A DNA stretch of 7,695 nucleotides from a virus (Duplodnaviria; Heunggongvirae; Uroviricota; Caudoviricetes): IMG/VR virus record IMGVR_UViG_2778261454_000007, positions 1-7,695 of that record. The stretch is one strand, 5' to 3'. Under the pieces are notes generated by a model. That model saw only the letters and a program-made list of their open reading frames with translations, was not told the origin of the DNA and made no database searches. Positions 1 to 7,695 of this stretch are shown here, in pieces (position 1 is the first letter of the stretch; each line of letters begins with the position of its first letter). Position numbers and translations under genes: made by a program.

Positions 1-61
1 GCGGCATAACCTGAATCTGAGGCAGCACCTGGCACGGCTGGGACGGAAGTCGCTGTCGTTC

Positions 62-1270
62 TCAAAATCGGTGGAGCTGCATGACAAAGTCATCGGGCAT
101 TATCTGAACATAAAACACTATCAATAAGTTGGAGTCATTACCCGCCAGCATAGCGAAACAATATGTATCCCAATGGTCTGGTGAGTGCAGGTTGAGTTTT
201 TTCTTCATATCCTCCTTACTCATCACCTTCCATTGACCTGCGGAGTTAATCCCTACAGGGATTTTCGACGCTTCCTCAATAGTTTCATTACCCTTATCCA
301 GTCTCATACGACCAGATTTTACGGCCTCTGCGGCTTGAACGTTGGCATAAGCACGCTTATCAAAGTACAGGCTCTTATCTTCACGACTATGCATCTTTTT
401 ACCCCAGCGTATACGCTGTACGGTAATACCATAATGCTCGTACATCAGATCCGCCGTTGCTTTACCCAGGCCATCGCCGTCGATCGCTATGGTGATATTT
501 GGGAATCGCTCAGGATTACATTCTGCGAAAATTTTGGCGGCAAGCTGCGTTTCTGTAACGTCTGTGTATTCCAGCATTCGATAGTTGATTACACGGCGTT
601 TATTTCGCTGGCCGGACACCATCATGATATTGATAACGGACTTATCCCGTCCCGTACCACCAGCAACGTCCACACATGCAAGCCAGCCCCATCCTTTGGC
701 AATCTTGACTTTCCGCCGCGTTGCACGTTCAACCTCATCACGTCCAAGAAGGAAGCCATCCTGTGATTTAGGGAATAGGCCGCGTACCTTAATCATGTAC
801 ATAGGGTTATCACGCCCGCCGTACTCCGCCAGCTTCATTTTGATAAATGCTGGCGTTACCAGCGGTGATTCCTCACTGTTAAGCGTGATCGCCGTATAAA
901 CGCCATCAGGGTTACCAGGACGCTTGACCAGTTTATGGTGTGTATCGTAGAAATAGCCGCTTGGGCGTGTAGGCTGTGACAGCAATAAGATGCGGTTATC
1001 CTGTCCGGTAAGAGCACCGGTGATGATACCGAAAGCTCTATCACTGACACCGGAGGCTTCATCGATAATATACAGAAGATGATCTGCGTGTTCACCGGCG
1101 AGAGCTTCTTCACTTCCCAGACGAAAGCCCTTCGGTACTACAGTCCATACACCTTTACCAGTAACCTCATAGAAAGCGGTTTCTGTCAGAACAAAATAAT
1201 CAGCAAGCCATGGAAAACGGCTGGTGGCCGTAGCCCAGTTTATCTTGATGTACTTGAATATACCGGTCAT
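62..1270 (-). CDS. pacB: Terminase large subunit (pacase PacB-like), C-terminal 402-aa segment; same frame as 1277..1546 but separated from it by an in-frame TAG, so the intact gene would span 62..1546 (494 codons)
   Basis: Minus-strand ORF with ATG at 1268..1270. Contains a Walker-B-like [11 protein letters not shown] and a C-terminal acidic-residue nuclease-like region ([18 protein letters not shown]) typical of phage large terminases. It lies directly downstream of pacA, and the combined length of 494 aa matches my recollection of P1 PacB. Confidence 0.85.
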
Positions 1271-1276
1271 TACCTG

Positions 1277-1546
1277 CTAAATTTTGTTCGCAACGATAAT
1301 GGCACGGGCACCGGGATACATGATTATGAACAACATGATCATGATAGAAGTCATGTCTGATTTCCCGGTACCGTGACCAGACGAAACAGATGTCTTGCTA
1401 CCCTGTTCCTGCACAGACTCAATAATCAGATCCTGCTGCCAGGTAGGTGTTTTGCCGAACAAAACATCAGCGGCCGCAATCCAGTCATAACGATATAGCG
1501 CCACCAACTCGCGCCAACGTGGATCCGTTACGCAACTTCTGGCCAT
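1277..1546 (-). pseudogene. pacB: PacB N-terminal 89-aa segment terminated by an in-frame amber codon (TAG = revcomp of 1277..1279); gene appears disrupted
   Basis: ATG at 1544..1546 overlaps the pacA stop (TAATG). Carries the P-loop-like SGHGTGKS. Frame arithmetic: 1546 and 1270 are both 1 mod 3, so the two ORFs share a frame; the codons read ...ANKI-TAG-CAG-GTA-ATG(TGIF...). Confidence 0.8.
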
Positions 1547-2739
1547 TAATCATCATCCCCGTATAGCTTGCGGGTAACTTCTTCGTCTTCCTCCTCGTCT
1601 TCGTCTAGATCTTGTTCCAGCCATGGTTCGTTTGATACACCTTCAGTATCAACATCTCCATAACCGCCTGTATCAACGATATCGGCGATTTCTTCCCTAC
1701 GTTGCTCAATCCACAATGCAGCATCGGCGCGGCGGTTGGCGGCCCGTTCTCGCGCAACTTTGTCCAGATCTTCAAGAGAAGGGCCACCGACGGCTGTTTG
1801 CCTTTCCTCATCATCGGTATTGGTCTTAGGAGCACGCAGATCGGCTTTGATTTGCTCCAGCATCAGGGGCGGAACTTTCCCGCCATGCGCCTCGATGAAT
1901 TCAGCTGCTTCCAGCACTGACCAGTTATTTTCACGCTTTCGTTCGTATGCCAGCTTAACAATGCCAGCCTGCCCCATAGACAAAGCGTGCTTTTCCGCCT
2001 CCCGGCTTTCTTTTCGATAGTTATTCCGGATGCTGTAAATGGTGTTGATCAGACTGCTTATCTGCGCGGAACAGCTGTTTAGCATGCTCGCGATACGGTA
2101 TTCAGGCGGAGTACCTTCATCATCGTCTTTTTGCTGATCGCGCATTTCCTGCACCAGGCGAATACACGTATCCCTGGCGTTCTCCAGCATAAGGAGATGA
2201 GAAAGAGACTTTTCAAGAAGAGTGGTTTCCAGAACATCGGCCCCGGACCGACGCAACATAGCGCGCGCGGCCTTCCGCGCTTCAACGTTATCTATCAGGT
2301 AATCGCCAGCTTCGAATTCAAAGCGTTCACCATCATCATCCAGGGTGTCGCGTTCCAGGCGATCACGTAAGGTCCGGTGGGCGCGGGTGATCACGTCATG
2401 ATCATCTGAACGATCATTTATGCGCTTATTTTGGCGCTTCGCATTCTCGACTGCGGCACTGACAACGGCATTAACTCTCTGTTTTTCCGCTATTTCAGCC
2501 GCAATATGATCACCTGCATGTTGATCATTAGAGTGATCAATGATCATGCTTTTTAGTGGCTTCCTGACTGGCTTATTTGGCTTGCGGCTGTCCGCAGTCC
2601 TGGTGTCTTCTTTGAAGGCACGGAGATAACGACGTGCAGTATTAGGGTTAAGATTAAACTCGGCGGCATACTGTGCGATGGTGTAACCACCATCTCGCGC
2701 CAGGCGAGCAAAATTCTTCTTGTGATCGTCCCAGGTCAC
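1546..2739 (-). CDS. pacA: Small terminase / pacase subunit PacA (397 aa) with N-terminal HTH and highly acidic C-terminus
   Basis: 397-aa ORF; N-terminus [39 protein letters not shown] is HTH-like, and the C-terminus [13 protein letters not shown] is acidic. Apparent GTG start (revcomp of 2737..2739) preceded by AAGGAAG. The TGATC(A/G) hexamer clusters of a P1-type pac site lie inside its 5' third, and it is translationally coupled to pacB. Confidence 0.9.
2360..2546. other. pac-type packaging site: two clusters of TGATC(A/G) hexamers (Dam GATC sites) inside pacA
   Basis: Hexamers at 2360-2365 (CGATCA), 2388-2393, 2399-2404, 2411-2416 (CGATCA), then 2507-2512, 2522-2527, 2534-2539, 2541-2546 (TGATCA), with about 90 bp of hexamer-free DNA between the clusters. 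P1 pac is described as about 160 bp with seven TGATCA/G elements, four at one end and three at the other. Confidence 0.75.
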
Positions 2740-2824
2740 TTATGCTTCCTTTCGTAAAAACTCTTTTTGACGCGAGGGTAACGAAAGTCACATGTCAAAA
2801 GGCCCGGAACGGGCAAGCAATCAA

Positions 2825-3277
2825 TCAGATACGTGCGGATGTGGCATTACCGTAATGACGGTGCTGACGGGCCACCTTATTGAAAAGTTGACGCGCCATT
2901 ACCCAAGGCTGGTGCTCCCGGCGTTCCTTTTCGTCCTGCGTCATATAGAGTTCGTTCTGGAGTTTTTCATCAAACCGGCGCGGAGCGCGGCTACGGCGAA
3001 AGAATTCAGGATTCAGAGAGTGGATCTGAAATCTACGTGGGCGTGTACTGTCATCAATCAAAACAGACGAATACTTAGACACAGCGATAGCCTTTAAGCG
3101 CAGATAAACATCGCGCTTATCGACATCCAGATGTGGGTATTCCTTTTCAAGAATTGCTGCGAGTTCTTTCGCTGATAGAAGAGATTTAGTGCGGATCATG
3201 TAATCCGCAATCTCGTACGATGTTATTCGTGAGTGATTTATTTCCATGAAGTGGCGTCCCTGCCAGTTAAGTAACAT
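2825..3277 (-). CDS. lpa: Late promoter activator Lpa-like protein (150 aa)
   Basis: 150-aa ORF with ATG at 3275..3277 preceded by AGGTGA. It sits immediately upstream of pacA/pacB in the same orientation, which is the P1 arrangement. Identity is by recollection of P1 Lpa (gp10) and gene order, not by alignment. Confidence 0.75.
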   Translation of the reverse strand: MLLNWQGRHFMEINHSRITSYEIADYMIRTKSLLSAKELAAILEKEYPHLDVDKRDVYLRLKAIAVSKYSSVLIDDSTRPRRFQIHSLNPEFFRRSRAPRRFDEKLQNELYMTQDEKERREHQPWVMARQLFNKVARQHRHYGNATSARI

Positions 3278-3322
3278 CCTGTCACCTACTGATTAGCCCA
3301 TGTCAACTAATCAACGTGGAAT

Positions 3323-3364
3323 ATAATACCATCGATTAAAGAAATAGCAATACATTAGAGCAAT
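3323..3364 (-). promoter_or_regulatory. Putative lpa promoter (-35 TTGCTA 3345..3350, 16-bp spacer, TGG-extended -10 TATTAT 3323..3328) overlapping a C1-operator-like 17-mer (3348..3364)
   Basis: The minus strand reads ATTGCTCTAATGTATTG, versus the P1 C1 operator consensus ATTGCTCTAATAAATTT as I recall it (first 11 nt identical, 14/17 overall). A sigma70-like -35/-10 pair overlaps this site, about 45 bp upstream of the lpa ATG. Confidence 0.45.
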
Positions 3365-3365
3365 T

Positions 3366-4409
3366 TTATCTAACACTCGACGAGTGACTTGTGATAGCGC
3401 CGACTCCAAGCGCGTAATCAAAGAACAATCGTTGATGCATCGCCAGCCTACCGTGCGTCTTCTCCCAATTATCGCGGTCACGCTCAATATCACGCTGGCA
3501 TGACTGGCACAGAGGAATTGCGTAAATGTCATGCGCGCATAATCGACTATGACGAACGATATAAGGCGTAATGTAAGCGCCAGCTCCCGCCGCTCCACAC
3601 CCACAGCATGGACGGGAAGCAACAAAGTCCATGTACTCAGGTAATTTTAGCGATTGCAGTTTTGGTATTTTGAAATGCGCCATGCCAGGGTCGGAGTCAA
3701 CATCCACAGGGCATACTTTTGCACGCATCGGCGCGGCGCGTTCTTCCATCATCTGAACATATGCTGTAGCGCGATCGTCATACGGGCGAATATCCGCCTC
3801 TTTCAGAGGTCCGCTATCCTGCGTTGCGGCTTTCATCTTATTTATTGATATACGGCAAACTTCTTCCGGCATCAGGTGCATCATGTTGCGCATGAAAGCC
3901 CACCAGCACAGTTCCTGAATACTTAAATCATGGCCATCTGAAAGCCCCATTTCCTGACGGGCGACATCCAGTATCCAGTTAACGCGATTATTATGCAGCG
4001 TTTCTTTCAGCTCATTAAAACCACGCATCCGGTAATGGTTATCGTGATGCCAGCACAACAACACCGCGCTCTTGTCTCGTTCAGCGTGGACAATATGGTT
4101 GTCACACCAACTACGATCTGCGGCCTGGCATTGCCCCTCTTTCCTGCGCAACCACGCCACCAGCGAGTCAATTCCACCAATACGGTGAAACAGTTCATCG
4201 CTGTTAAAAAACGGCTGCAACGCCTCATTTGTTGCCATGGTTTGCTCGGTAACAACGAGGCCGTCTTCCATGTGCTCGATTAACTCACGCGGCACCGGCT
4301 CCATAATAAATTTACGGCCAGCCTCCACCAGCTTTCTGACCTCCTGATCCACTTTGAACGTGGCGAGGCCAAGCTCTTTCTGTACAAAGGGAGTAATTAC
4401 GGCTTTCAC
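3366..4409 (-). CDS. pdcB: Post-doc protein PdcB-like, 347 aa, function unknown; Cys/His-rich C-terminal region (CCGCG...H...CAHD...CQSC) suggests a Zn-binding, possibly HNH-like, domain
   Basis: Long minus-strand ORF with GTG start (revcomp of 4407..4409) preceded by AAAGGTG; stop at 3366..3368. Its position after doc/pdcA and before lpa matches P1 pdcB from memory. No catalytic motif is assigned with confidence. Confidence 0.65.
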
Positions 4410-4436
4410 ATCACACCTTTCATCACTGATTGGGCT

Positions 4437-4616
4437 TTATCTGCTGCCCGGCATTCTCTGTTTAAGCACAACCATTTCCTGACGGCATAACACAGCAATA
4501 GCAGTCCTGGCTCCAATTTGCTTACCAACCAGGTATTGCTTTACCTCGCGGCGACTCACGCCATCAAGAAGCATCTTTAACGCTTCACGGGACAATTTGT
4601 TGTATTTGCGTGCCAT
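4437..4616 (-). CDS. pdcA: Small post-doc protein (59 aa from ATG 4614..4616; the ORF track extends to 4637), possible HTH-containing regulator
   Basis: ATG at 4614..4616 lies 5 nt after the doc stop and is preceded by GGAG; the longer start at 4637 would overlap doc. The sequence LSREALKMLLDGVSRREVKQYLVG is helix-turn-helix-like. The gene symbol is assigned by position only. Confidence 0.5.
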   Translation of the reverse strand: MARKYNKLSREALKMLLDGVSRREVKQYLVGKQIGARTAIAVLCRQEMVVLKQRMPGSR

Positions 4617-4620
4617 TAAT

Positions 4621-5001
4621 CTACTCCGCAGAACCATACAATCTACGTAACGTGTCGGCGACAGAAGATACAGATATCTCGCCAGTCGCAGCGCCTACAG
4701 TAAGGTCTGCCAGTTCAGGTGAATCAAATACCTGCACTCCGTTACGGCGTAGAAATAGCAGCGCACTGTTTAGCGCGGTACGCTTATTGGCATCATTGAA
4801 TATATGCCCTCTCGCTGTAGCCACCAGGTAGGTGGCGGAGACTTCGAAAAGGTCGGTGATATCTTCGTAGGCAACTCTGGCCTGAACTCTCCCGATAATG
4901 GCCTCTGCCCTACCCGGATCTGACATTCCCGGCAGGCCGCCGTAGCGGCTTATATTCGCATCATGAAGCGCAATAAGTTCTTCCGGTGATATATGCCTCA
5001 T
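4621..5001 (-). CDS. doc: Doc toxin (death on curing; Fic-fold kinase), 126 aa
   Basis: Contains the Fic-type motif HIFNDANKR. Length and sequence match my recollection of P1 Doc. The start ATG (4999..5001) overlaps the phd stop (5001..5003) as TAATG. Confidence 0.95.
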
Positions 5002-5222
5002 TATCGGTTAACCAGTTCCTTGTTGGTGGAGTCCAGGGTGTCAAACAGGGATGCAAATTCAGCATCCAGCGCCGCTTTTTTGTAGGCTTCGAAAGTAGCC
5101 TTGCTGACAATTACTGCTGGCTCACGGCCTCTGCGGGTGATTTCAACCTCTTCCCCGGCTTCAACATTGTTGAGCACTTCAGAAAGGTTGCCGCGCGCGG
5201 TACGGAAGTTAATGGATTGCAT
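5001..5222 (-). CDS. phd: Phd antitoxin (prevent host death), 73 aa from ATG 5220..5222
   Basis: [41 protein letters not shown]... matches my recollection of P1 Phd. GAGGTG sits 4 nt upstream of the ATG at 5222. The ORF-track start at 5228 is a GTG two codons upstream and is less likely. Confidence 0.93.
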
Positions 5223-5228
5223 AAACAC

Positions 5229-5259
5229 CTCGTGTACTCGTTATGTGTACACAATTATA
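5229..5259 (-). promoter_or_regulatory. phd-doc promoter and operator: -10 TATAAT (revcomp of 5254..5259) followed by palindrome TGTGTACACA (5244..5253) and a second GTGTAC-containing imperfect palindrome (5231..5240)
   Basis: The minus strand reads GTTTATAATTGTGTACACATAACGAGTACACGAGGTGTTTATG. Phd is known to autorepress by binding palindromic operator sites that overlap its promoter. Confidence 0.7.
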
Positions 5260-5354
5260 AACTTCACAGGCATAAAGCACCAGCACTTTGCGGCTTAACA
5301 AACCTCTAGGCAGGTCATTCGTAGCCTAATGTCCGAACTGCTAAAGCATCCAAG

Positions 5355-5366
5355 TTGCTGTAGAAT
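5355..5366 (+). promoter_or_regulatory. Possible hsdM promoter -10 element TAGAAT (5361..5366); no convincing -35
   Basis: This is the only reasonable -10-like hexamer within 40 bp upstream of the hsdM ATG. Support is weak. Confidence 0.25.
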
Positions 5367-5398
5367 CACCGCCAATTACATAAGCCTGAAATAAGTGG

Positions 5399-6961
5399 AT
5401 GAAAATGACAAGTATTCAACAACGTGCAGAGCTTCATCGTCAAATCTGGCAAATTGCTAACGATGTCAGAGGTTCGGTCGATGGATGGGATTTTAAGCAA
5501 TACGTTCTGGGCGCGCTTTTCTACCGTTTTATCAGCGAAAATTTTTCCAGCTATATTGAAGCCGGTGATGACAGCATCTGTTATGCGAAACTGGATGACA
5601 GCGTAATTACTGATGACATTAAAGACGATGCCATCAAAACCAAAGGCTACTTCATCTACCCAAGTCAGCTTTTCTGCAACGTAGCTGCGAAAGCAAATAC
5701 CAATGACAGACTGAACGCAGATTTAAACAGCATCTTCGTTGCTATCGAAAGTTCTGCTTACGGTTATCCTTCAGAAGCAGACATCAAAGGTTTGTTTGCT
5801 GATTTCGATACCACCAGTAACCGCCTGGGTAACACCGTTAAAGATAAAAATGCCCGCCTGGCTGCGGTTCTGAAAGGGGTTGAAGGGTTAAAGCTTGGCG
5901 ACTTTAACGAACATCAGATTGACCTGTTCGGCGATGCCTATGAGTTCCTGATTTCTAACTATGCCGCGAATGCCGGTAAGTCAGGCGGCGAGTTCTTTAC
6001 ACCGCAGCACGTCTCTAAGCTGATTGCACAACTGGCAATGCACGGCCAGACCCACGTTAACAAAATCTACGACCCGGCAGCAGGTTCCGGTTCGCTGTTG
6101 TTGCAGGCTAAAAAACAGTTTGATGACCATATCATCGAAGAAGGTTTTTTTGGTCAGGAAATCAACCATACGACCTATAACCTGGCGCGTATGAACATGT
6201 TTTTGCACAACATCAACTACGACAAGTTTGATATCAAGTTGGGCAATACGCTGACTGAGCCGCACTTCAGAGATGAAAAACCGTTTGATGCCATCGTTTC
6301 TAACCCGCCGTATTCGGTGAAATGGATTGGCAGCGATGACCCGACGCTGATTAACGATGAACGTTTTGCCCCGGCTGGCGTTCTGGCCCCCAAATCCAAA
6401 GCTGACTTTGCGTTTGTATTACATGCGCTGAACTATCTTTCTGCCAAAGGTCGTGCTGCGATTGTCTGCTTCCCGGGCATTTTTTACCGTGGCGGCGCGG
6501 AGCAGAAAATCCGTCAGTATCTGGTTGACAATAACTATGTCGAAACCGTGATTTCACTCGCACCGAACCTGTTCTTTGGCACCACCATTGCCGTCAATAT
6601 TCTGGTGTTGTCTAAACATAAAACGGATACCAACGTTCAGTTTATTGATGCCAGCGAGCTGTTCAAAAAAGAGACTAACAACAACATTCTGACCGATGCC
6701 CATATCGAACAGATTATGCAGGTATTTGCCAGCAAGGAAGATGTTGCTCATCTGGCGAAATCTGTCGCGTTTGAGACCGTTGTCGCGAATGACTATAACC
6801 TGTCGGTGAGCAGCTATGTGGAAGCGAAAGATACTCGCGAAATTATCGATATCGCTGAGTTGAATGCAGAGCTGAAAACCACGGTCAGCAAAATCGACCA
6901 GTTGCGTAAAGATATTGATGCGATTGTGGCTGAAATTGAAGGCTGCGAGGTGCAAAAATGA
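5399..6961 (+). CDS. hsdM: Type I restriction-modification methyltransferase subunit HsdM, type IC (EcoR124I/EcoDXXI/EcoprrI family), 520 aa
   Basis: N6-adenine methyltransferase motifs are present: AdoMet-binding [10 protein letters not shown] (6071..6100) and catalytic NPPY (6302..6313). The N-terminus [25 protein letters not shown] and the 520-aa length match my recollection of EcoR124I HsdM. The stop overlaps the hsdS start (ATGA, 6958..6961). Confidence 0.95.
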
Positions 6962-7695
6962 GCGAGTTGAGTTATCTGGAAAAATTGCTGGATGGGGTTG
7001 AGGTTAAATGGAAAGCAGTGGGCGATATCGCCGGGTATTCAACAACCAAAGTTGATGCTGATAAACTTGATGCCACTTCATTCGTTGGCGTTGATAATCT
7101 CCTTGCTGATAAAGGCGGTCGCATTGATGCCACCTATCAGCCTAATACGGCACGTTTAACTGCCTATGAGCCAGGTGATATTCTTTTAGGTAATATTCGC
7201 CCATATTTAAAGAAAGTTTGGATGGCGGAGAATAATGGCGGGTGCAGTGGTGATGTCCTTGCTATACGCATTTTAGCAGACTGTAAAAAAATTATTAGTC
7301 CAGAATATCTCTACTATGCATTATCGTCGGATTCATTTTTTTCTTACAGTATGCAGCACGCTAAAGGGGCAAAGATGCCTCGAGGCAGTAAAGATGCAAT
7401 TTTAAACTATCAAATACCCATCCCTTGTCCCAGCGCCCCGGAAAAATCCCTTGCCATCCAGTCTGAAATTGTTCGGATTCTGGATAAATTTACTGAGCTT
7501 ACAGCAGAGCTTACAGCAGAGCTTACAGCAGAGCTTAGCATGCGTAAAAAACAATACAACTACTATCGCGACCAGTTGTTGAGTTTTAAAGAGGATGAGG
7601 TTGAGGGTAAGAGGAAAACCTTAGGGGAAATTATGAAGATGCGTGCCGGACAACATATTTCGGCTCATAATATAAATGAAAGAAAAGAAGAGAGT
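6958..7695 (+). CDS. hsdS: Type I R-M specificity subunit HsdS, 5' partial (246 codons; continues past window end): N-terminal target-recognition domain plus central conserved region with TAEL repeats
   Basis: ATG at 6958..6960 overlaps the hsdM stop. The conserved N-terminus [16 protein letters not shown] and the central region [49 protein letters not shown] are typical of type IC HsdS. There is no stop codon before the window end. Confidence 0.9.
7495..7536 (+). repeat. Tandem 12-bp repeat ACAGCAGAGCTT x3 (7501..7536) preceded by a 6-bp partial copy GAGCTT (7495..7500), in frame, encoding (T)[14 protein letters not shown] in the HsdS central spacer region
   Basis: Three perfect tandem copies are visible in the sequence. 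In the EcoR124I/EcoR124II system the copy number of this 12-bp unit (two versus three) sets the spacer length of the recognition site (N6 versus N7). Confidence 0.9.

Follow-up and report, generated by a model that had tools for sequence, protein, structure and literature searches.

The 7,695-nucleotide (nt) stretch of caudoviral DNA analyzed here (positions 1 to 7,695 of the IMG/VR record IMGVR_UViG_2778261454_000007, referred to below as the window) carries two genes, pdcA and pdcB, packed directly behind the phd-doc addiction module. Profile and alignment evidence identifies the 347-amino acid (aa) product of pdcB as a full-length member, in its P1-lineage version, of the YdfU/DUF968 family, and its C-terminal zinc finger has lost the histidines that define His-Me finger nucleases. 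This degenerate active site, no description of which was found in the literature searched, is the only modestly new point of the analysis; both genes are already known. As the best explanation overall, which we hold with slightly better than even confidence, pdcB would be a gene of the P1-like phage backbone encoding a non-catalytic binder and pdcA a separate cassette, neither of them being a component of phd-doc.

It can be stated with very high confidence that the window derives from a P1-like phage-plasmid and that the two open reading frames (ORFs) are the known and already named pdcA and pdcB. Nucleotide identity of the region 3300-4700 is 98.4% to RCS47, 97.8% to P7, and 97.4% to P1, in which the genes are annotated as pdcA (fdc in P7) and pdcB (upf95.7 in P7) with "unknown protein function". 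The first-pass annotation of the window had regarded these two as its least characterized genes; this stands as far as their function is concerned, but both had already been named and annotated in the three elements. PdcB is 96-98% identical to P1 PdcB (AAQ14077.1) and P7 Upf95.7 (96-97% at the amino-acid level in the comparison of the 347-aa proteins), differing from them by point substitutions only, and the neighbors are the same, i.e., doc-pdcA upstream and Olpa/Plpa-lpa-pacAB downstream.

Both pdcA and pdcB can be accepted as real coding genes rather than chance ORFs. Relative to P1, P7, SJ46, and 813R1, pdcB shows 15-23 synonymous and 8-12 non-synonymous changes (ratio of non-synonymous to synonymous change, pN/pS, 0.09-0.18) and is under clear purifying selection, while pdcA is nearly invariant, its most diverged copy (in phage D6) having six synonymous and two non-synonymous changes. 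Full-length matches were obtained in PHROG for PdcB (phrog_96, 2e-126) and PdcA (phrog_3345, 5.8e-44). Natural frameshifted or truncated pdcB alleles exist. A 104-aa alternative-frame ORF (window 3311-3625, minus strand) overlaps the 3' end of pdcB and matches the C-terminal end seen in rare frameshifted variants of PdcB with 365 aa (P0005, P0006, and P0014); it was rejected as a separate gene and treated as a by-product of the frameshift alleles.

The Pfam profile DUF968 (PF06147) matched residues 161-337 of PdcB (4.7e-49; 167.1 bits against a gathering cutoff of 27.8) over all of its 171 positions (1-171), and end-to-end alignment with 28%-identical homologs reached 98% query coverage. A word-indexed homolog search gave 22 PdcB relatives even with a profile (three of them distant), so an exhaustive search of representatives was needed; this hidden Markov model search recovered 201 cluster representatives. 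Of these, about 45 are full-length proteins of roughly 330 aa, which the profile matches over positions 1-339. The full-length family is labeled "HNH endonuclease" in PHROG, and likewise in RefSeq. A single-sequence search of the PDB with PdcB gave no match, and the NCBIfam search nothing usable. DUF968 and DUF1364/YbcO (PDB 3g27) were previously placed in group 7 of the His-Me finger superfamily, with YdfU of the Qin prophage named as a member and a recombination role guessed for it (PMC5714182). A zinc-finger HNH motif was also seen in DUF968 proteins, a part of which was claimed to resemble lambda Orf (PMC4118853); the equivalent part of PdcB (approximately residues 161-255) has low model confidence. 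The literature search found no experimental paper on any YdfU/DUF968 protein.

PdcB has the organization typical of YdfU, i.e., a CQ...LCWHHDN zinc domain followed by DUF968, alignable from end to end. YdfU and SfV Orf45 have the same two-domain architecture and align over their whole length at 24-30% identity, and the likeness to YdfU and the lambdoid DUF968 proteins extends to the N-domain motif CQ...LCWHHDN...ELCWWA, the Cys-rich beta-beta-alpha finger, and the RD..WE..HG tail. The AlphaFold2 model of PdcB, built on 15 sequences, is of moderate quality (mean predicted local distance difference test score (pLDDT) of 63.6); residues 60-180 are confident, and residues 1-55, 189-211, and 229-255 are poorly modeled. 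The following parts were distinguished (here and below, coordinates are those of the whole window):

Residues 1-60 (4230-4409, minus strand): N-terminal tail, pLDDT below 50 for most of it.
Residues 61-190 (3840-4229, minus strand): helical domain, pLDDT 74-91.
Residues 191-255 (3645-3839, minus strand): conserved linker, low model confidence.
Residues 256-340 (3390-3644, minus strand): Cys4 beta-beta-alpha finger of the His-Me/HNH type with a degenerate active site.

The N-terminal tail is conserved (67-77% identity to the PdcB proteins of P1-like relatives that are 65-71% identical overall). Within the helical domain, AlphaFold2 predicted strands 106-111 and 114-119 and helix 120-129, and this beta-hairpin and helix carry the family motif LCWHHDN. 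A probable zinc site of this domain consists of C94, C102, C119, and H122: C94 and C119 are near-invariant across 53 family members, and either Cys or His is found at positions 102 and 122, a pattern that is the signature of zinc ligands. The idea that the LCWHHDN hairpin and helix duplicate the C-terminal finger was dropped as unsupported (the in-register hhalign alignment with PLCxxCHxxLH had a probability of 0.6% and E = 0.09). In the model, the finger itself comprises strands 280-285 and 296-301 and helix 302-310, forming a second beta-beta-alpha unit at 280-310, with an invariant Cys4 set (C268, C271, C301, and C304), so that the fold of the His-Me superfamily, beta-beta-alpha with a Cys4 zinc site, is present. 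The first-pass annotation had compared this C-terminus to a zinc ribbon or an HNH-like motif, quoting a peptide that is indeed found at residues 267-307 of the 347-aa product, and the DUF968 match, the Cys4 site, and the beta-beta-alpha finger all bear this comparison out.

In some family members, the N-domain is fused to tail-tip, fiber, portal, or glycine-rich domains. The fusion proteins P0048, P0087, P0090, P0056, and P0148 carry one identical PdcB-family N-part; prophage deletion or chimeric assembly is the most likely origin of such fusions, and they were not used as hints to function.

The active site was compared between 36 canonical family members and 17 sequences of the P1/D6 type. 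The canonical motif, C..C..DPHH(I/L)IGHGxGGMGTKAHDxFxIPLCRxCHxxLHxD, aligned weakly (profile, E = 1.1) to the YbcO segment HIRLTGLCGTGTKPPDLIATIACSACHDEID, an alignment that sets the second His of the HH pair on the beta-1 His of a solved His-Me finger. Where the canonical sequences have DPHH(I/L)IGHG-GGMGTKAHD...CRxCHxxLH, those of the P1/D6 type read PY(I/L)V...R-LCAHD...CxxCQxxI(E/A), and the individual positions (PdcB residue in brackets) compare as follows:

First His of the HH pair (Y283): His in 35 of 36 canonical sequences; in the P1/D6 type, His in 1 of 17, Tyr or Phe in 16.
General-base His (I284): His in 36 of 36 canonical sequences; in the P1/D6 type, His in 0 of 17, Ile, Leu, or Met in 16, and Arg in 1.
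His after the second CxxC (Q305): His in 35 of 36 canonical sequences; in the P1/D6 type, His in 0 of 17, Gln in 15.
His of the "LH" pair (E309): His in 35 of 36 canonical sequences; in the P1/D6 type, His in 0 of 17, replaced by E, A, S, R, or V.
Residues lying between the general base and H293: 13 in canonical sequences (34 of 36); 8 in the P1/D6 type (16 of 17).

PdcB thus has neither the general-base His at the end of beta-1 (I284) nor the metal ligands that flank it and lie on the alpha-helix (Y283, Q305, and E309), and the loop of the P1/D6 type is five residues shorter. The homolog of D6 itself shows the same losses. On the other hand, the Cys4 set and H293/D294 are kept in all 17 P1-type sequences, as is D311, and the finger domain is 66-72% identical among P1-like relatives that are 65-71% identical overall, level with the other domains. 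This equal conservation indicates that the module is kept by selection even though the defining residues of a His-Me nuclease are missing, and the His losses together with the retained Cys4 set and the retained selection point to a structural or binding role rather than to catalysis. The canonical relatives with the full HH...H...H set are presumably DNA nucleases, as predicted from their motifs. For PdcB, we tentatively propose, at nearly even confidence, a zinc-stabilized non-catalytic binding protein with an accessory part in phage DNA metabolism. The nuclease function that the first-pass annotation had offered as one possibility is argued against by the comparison of catalytic residues, in which the general-base His was found in none of the 17 P1-type sequences.

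YbcO (DUF1364, DLP12 prophage), a 96-aa single-domain protein and the one match of the family profile in the PDB (weak, E = 1.1), keeps the beta-1 His and the His of the CH pair, whereas PdcB has neither of them. Lambda Rap/NinG and P1 Ref have no detectable homology to PdcB (no NinG or RecA_dep_nuc Pfam match); Rap and Ref are active His-Me finger nucleases with intact catalytic His (PMC5714182), which PdcB does not have. The terminase-associated HNH proteins of the HK97 gp74 type are small, have an intact motif, are encoded beside the terminase, and are needed for packaging; PdcB is encoded just two genes upstream of pacA but differs from them in being 347 aa long, without the HNH histidines, and non-essential (PMC10695390).

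A CRISPR interference (CRISPRi) knock-down of pdcB gave a plating efficiency of 0.68 and was scored as non-essential, while pdcA was not targetable by CRISPRi and a deletion survey was cited for its non-essentiality (PMC10695390); P1 with pdcB::kan is viable and forms stable lysogens (PMC10067587, PMC10999674). Nevertheless, a comparison of 77 P1-like plasmids places pdcB in the group of the 21 genes with the highest conservation (PMC9603915). A literature search for pdcA together with phd found only unrelated "PDCA" papers, and the main text of the paper on P1 structure and deletions does not mention the pdc genes.

The genes and sites of the window, with phd, doc, pdcA, pdcB, lpa, and pacA all on the minus strand, are the following:

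5228-5001, minus strand: phd (Pfam PhdYeFM_antitox, 3.1e-13; P1 annotation).
5001-4621, minus strand: doc (Pfam Fic/DOC, 2.9e-09; P1 annotation), stop TAG at 4623-4621.
4616-4437, minus strand: pdcA, 59 aa, ATG at 4616-4614, stop at 4439-4437.
4409-3366, minus strand: pdcB, 347 aa, GTG start at 4409-4407, stop at 3368-3366.
3364-3348, minus strand: Olpa, a C1 operator (P1 annotation carried over at 97% identity; sequence).
3350-3345 (-35) and a -10 ending at 3323, minus strand: Plpa (P1 annotation; promoter scan match 3350-3323).
3277-2825, minus strand: lpa, late promoter activator (Pfam BPP1_LPA, 3.1e-57).
2739-1546, minus strand: pacA, then the start of pacB.
5399-6961, plus strand: hsdM of a type I restriction-modification system, divergent from phd.
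6958-7695, plus strand: start of hsdS, which runs off the window.

The ATG of pdcA follows the doc TAG after four spacer bases, i.e., it starts 5 nt past the doc stop, and GGAG at 4627-4624, 7 nt upstream of the ATG, is a plausible ribosome-binding site. The stop of pdcA is separated by 27 bp from the pdcB GTG, which is preceded by AAGGTG, and the spacer between pdcB and lpa is 88 bp. An alternative in-frame ATG of pdcA at 4637 would give 66 aa, the form annotated for P1 in GenBank; the 59-aa form is that of the majority of PdcA proteins at NCBI. On re-reading the sequence, the coordinates, the 5-nt and 27-bp spacings, and the co-orientation with phd-doc reported in the first-pass annotation all proved correct.

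Elsewhere, the pdcB family is found in quite different surroundings. Among the PdcB-family matches in phage records, 155 of 175 are below 60% identity, and those inspected belong to lambdoid or Vibrio phages; full-length homologs at 24-30% identity are common in lambdoid and present in some Vibrio phages. In the lambdoid loci inspected, the DUF968 gene follows primase or RusA and directly precedes the Q antiterminator gene, and no toxin-antitoxin system lies nearby. The Pectobacterium and metagenomic homologs are located between primase/RusA and Q, and those of SfV and the Stx2a phage just before Q; no Q-like gene is annotated after the DUF968 homolog of Vibrio phage H20. While the lambdoid setting is the nin region before Q, the setting in P1 is before Lpa. 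Klebsiella and Cronobacter P1-like plasmids (68% identity) have the order pdcB-lpa-pacA-pacB-c1 with unrelated small genes in front and no phd-doc, and a 37%-identical metagenomic homolog also adjoins the Lpa gene, the pdcB-lpa adjacency thus holding in relatives down to 37% identity. In phage D6, phd-doc-pdcA (97% nucleotide identity) is followed by convergent genes, and the pdcB homolog (37.5% identical) lies 5 kb away from phd-doc-pdcA, behind a ppp-like phosphoesterase gene and not beside lpa. From these contexts, pdcB is best assigned to the phage backbone.

It was also observed that a DUF968/YdfU gene immediately precedes the late activator gene in two unrelated regulatory systems, the activator being Q in one and Lpa in the other, with D6 as an exception (loci L002 6001-7706, L018 2573-4256, L020 2501-3849, and L006 6001-7582). 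This recurrence is striking, yet the position may be just that of the last early gene.

Unlike PdcB, PdcA is narrowly distributed. It is 95-100% identical to the PdcA/Fdc annotated in 21 phage records, in all of which (21 of 21) the gene occurs only downstream of doc. Among plasmids, coverage of the phd-doc-pdcA query reaches 80% or more in at least 1125 records. No relatives below approximately 75% identity were found, and all came from P1-type DNA of Escherichia or Salmonella. P1 PdcA and P7 Fdc (95-100% identity, the same position 5 nt after doc) show no difference of substance from PdcA of the window. The protein, strongly basic and of 59 aa, had no Pfam, PADLOC, or PDB sequence match (the PDB was also searched with a PdcA profile), and its AlphaFold2 model (pLDDT 85.7) has helices 2-17, 22-31, and 36-54, a predicted three-helix bundle. 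It probably binds nucleic acid.

The linkage of these genes to phd-doc is broken at precise points. The breakpoints of pairwise alignments fall exactly at gene borders:

4409: pdcB start, in the Klebsiella and Cronobacter P1-like plasmids.
4435: just past the pdcA stop, in D6.
4631: doc end, in the D6-like plasmid pGA_Eco1, which has phd-doc without pdcA.

This is a clean case of gene-by-gene modular exchange, and together with the context data the breakpoints suggest that the tight packing reflects modular insertion upstream of a backbone gene rather than a conserved operon. By the same comparison, phd-doc and pdcA are separate cassettes, and neither pdcA nor pdcB is a conserved part of phd-doc. 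In an inspected conjugative plasmid of incompatibility group F (IncF; NZ_LS992169.1, L017 1-6083), hsdRSM, phd, doc, pdcA, and the first 278 nt of pdcB are followed by IS5 downstream of the pdcB stub, the junction being shared with window 4132-5400. The 278-nt truncation point is common to about 430 plasmid records, as against 666 with full-length pdcB (the IncF status of the stub plasmids is taken from the one inspected record), and because this point is identical in all of them, it suggests one ancestral capture of P1 DNA and its later spread.

Expression is probably shared in P1-type genomes, where phd, doc, pdcA, and pdcB would be co-transcribed from Pphd. A simple scan of the minus strand from doc to the end of pdcB detected neither a terminator-like nor a promoter-like site, which fits read-through from Pphd; the scan is crude, and the annotated Pphd escaped it as well. 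Olpa, which overlaps Plpa, starts 2 nt beyond the stop of pdcB. No terminator-like site was seen between the pdcB stop and Olpa either, and read-through from the constitutive Pphd operon would meet the repressor-bound lpa promoter; lysogens would have to keep the late activator off against such read-through.

Several other explanations were considered. PdcB could be an active HNH endonuclease with a non-canonical site of H293, D294, and D311, acting in recombination or repair like lambda Rap/NinG or P1 Ref, which we regard as rather unlikely: none of the 17 P1-type sequences has the beta-1 His that defines His-Me fingers (Ile, Leu, Met, or, in one of them, Arg stands there instead), three further His (each present in 35 of 36 canonical sequences) are lost, the loop is shortened, and H293 is replaced in 8 of the 36 canonical members, which makes it an unlikely catalytic residue for the family. 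A bolder proposal, unlikely in our view, is that PdcB of P1 and D6 is a nuclease-dead offshoot repurposed as a zinc-finger binder, i.e., a sensor or regulator of DNA structure or of the early-to-late switch, with PdcA, separately, as a nucleic-acid-binding accessory modulating phd-doc expression. Still less probable is a regulatory or insulating DNA-binding role of PdcB in the early-to-late switch as such. It would explain the position immediately before Q and before Lpa, the 2-nt distance between the pdcB stop and Olpa, and the loss of the nuclease site with retention of the zinc fingers; however, the D6 homolog is not beside lpa, the one in Vibrio phage H20 has no Q-like gene annotated after it, knock-down or disruption of pdcB leaves plaque formation and lysogeny unimpaired (PMC10695390, PMC10999674), and the position before the late activator may mark nothing else than the end of the early genes.

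A functional extension of phd-doc, with pdcA and/or pdcB serving as regulator, nuclease effector, or anti-toxin helper, is close to what the first-pass annotation had envisaged, and we consider it very unlikely. The tight co-oriented packing with no detectable terminator, the confinement of pdcA to the place after doc in the phage records, its presence with phd-doc on so many plasmids, and its retention on those with the 278-nt pdcB stub speak for it. However, this retention may be clonal hitch-hiking (the truncation is identical in the approximately 430 records), phd-doc occurs without pdcA, the pdcA-phd-doc linkage holds only within near-identical P1-derived DNA, and the pdcB family is overwhelmingly found without phd-doc, D6 separating the two. 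For the PdcB family, spread without toxin-antitoxin linkage, the finding that had been named in advance as contradicting the proposed link to the addiction module, is what was observed: the linkage is not conserved across lineages, P1-like elements devoid of phd-doc keep pdcB beside lpa, and D6 splits phd-doc-pdcA from pdcB. The link to the addiction module is accordingly unsupported, and of the earlier interpretation as a whole the metal-binding, HNH-like part holds, but the toxin-antitoxin part does not. In 1993, Lehnherr et al. reportedly found that phd and doc alone suffice for addiction. The least plausible explanation is that PdcA and/or PdcB are defense or anti-defense cargo beside the toxin-antitoxin and type I restriction-modification systems. 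In its favor, phd-doc and hsdMS flank the variable accessory region that holds the two genes, both genes are non-essential, and inactivated nuclease folds sometimes serve as decoys. However, neither protein had a PADLOC match at E values up to 0.1, the lambdoid relatives show no association with defense-gene neighborhoods, and pdcB is a conserved backbone gene, one of the 21 extremely conserved P1 genes (PMC9603915).

The explanation favored here, a backbone pdcB encoding a non-catalytic binder and an independent pdcA cassette, would run as follows. pdcB is the P1-lineage version of the YdfU/DUF968 family, which in lambdoid prophages supplies the last gene of the early "nin-type" replication/recombination region, just in front of Q. 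Most of the P1-like elements examined carry the gene directly upstream of the late activator gene lpa (D6 being the exception), and in the P1/D6 lineage the four catalytic or metal-binding His are replaced and the catalytic loop is shortened with the domain conserved. PdcB may then bind nucleic acid (possibly branched DNA) or a partner protein non-catalytically, as an accessory, non-essential function of the phage backbone in DNA metabolism, and would be neither a nuclease nor a phd-doc component. The gene pdcA would be a cassette gene downstream of doc encoding a basic three-helix protein, and the four genes may be co-transcribed from Pphd merely because the cassettes were inserted upstream of pdcB. 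Several points weigh against this explanation: the nuclease activity of the canonical relatives is itself a prediction, the catalytic His were mapped by motif logic and the weak YbcO profile alignment (E = 1.1), the finger is modeled with moderate confidence (pLDDT 59-85), and an unconventional active site could be built from H293, D294, and D311, none of which varies within the P1-type clade; moreover, we only infer the nucleic-acid binding of PdcB and PdcA, and take co-transcription from spacing and a crude terminator scan only.

On the far side of phd, hsdM and the start of hsdS occupy in the window the place that humD has in P1. A 12-bp unit is repeated perfectly in tandem within the coding sequence of hsdS (3.6 copies, 7495-7537). 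It resembles the repeat in the central spacer of type IC specificity subunits, the copy number of which determines how long the spacer in the recognition site is.

P1 serves as a model phage and as a standard tool for transduction, and P1-like phage-plasmids spread resistance genes. In this group, pdcB is among the most conserved genes (PMC9603915). With its catalytic histidines lost, the P1 lineage is probably mislabeled when automatic annotation calls its proteins "HNH endonuclease", and the phd-doc neighborhood is an accident of cassette insertion, so that addiction-module experiments need not include pdcA or pdcB. If the non-catalytic interpretation of PdcB fails, the two are accessory phage genes of an ordinary kind that had been catalogued before. 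If PdcB is repurposed as a nuclease-dead protein, or if PdcA is an accessory of phd-doc expression, this would be the first function for genes listed as "unknown" since the annotation of P1. If PdcB is non-catalytic, then it and its intact lambdoid relatives would make a natural active/inactive pair for studying the YdfU/DUF968 family.

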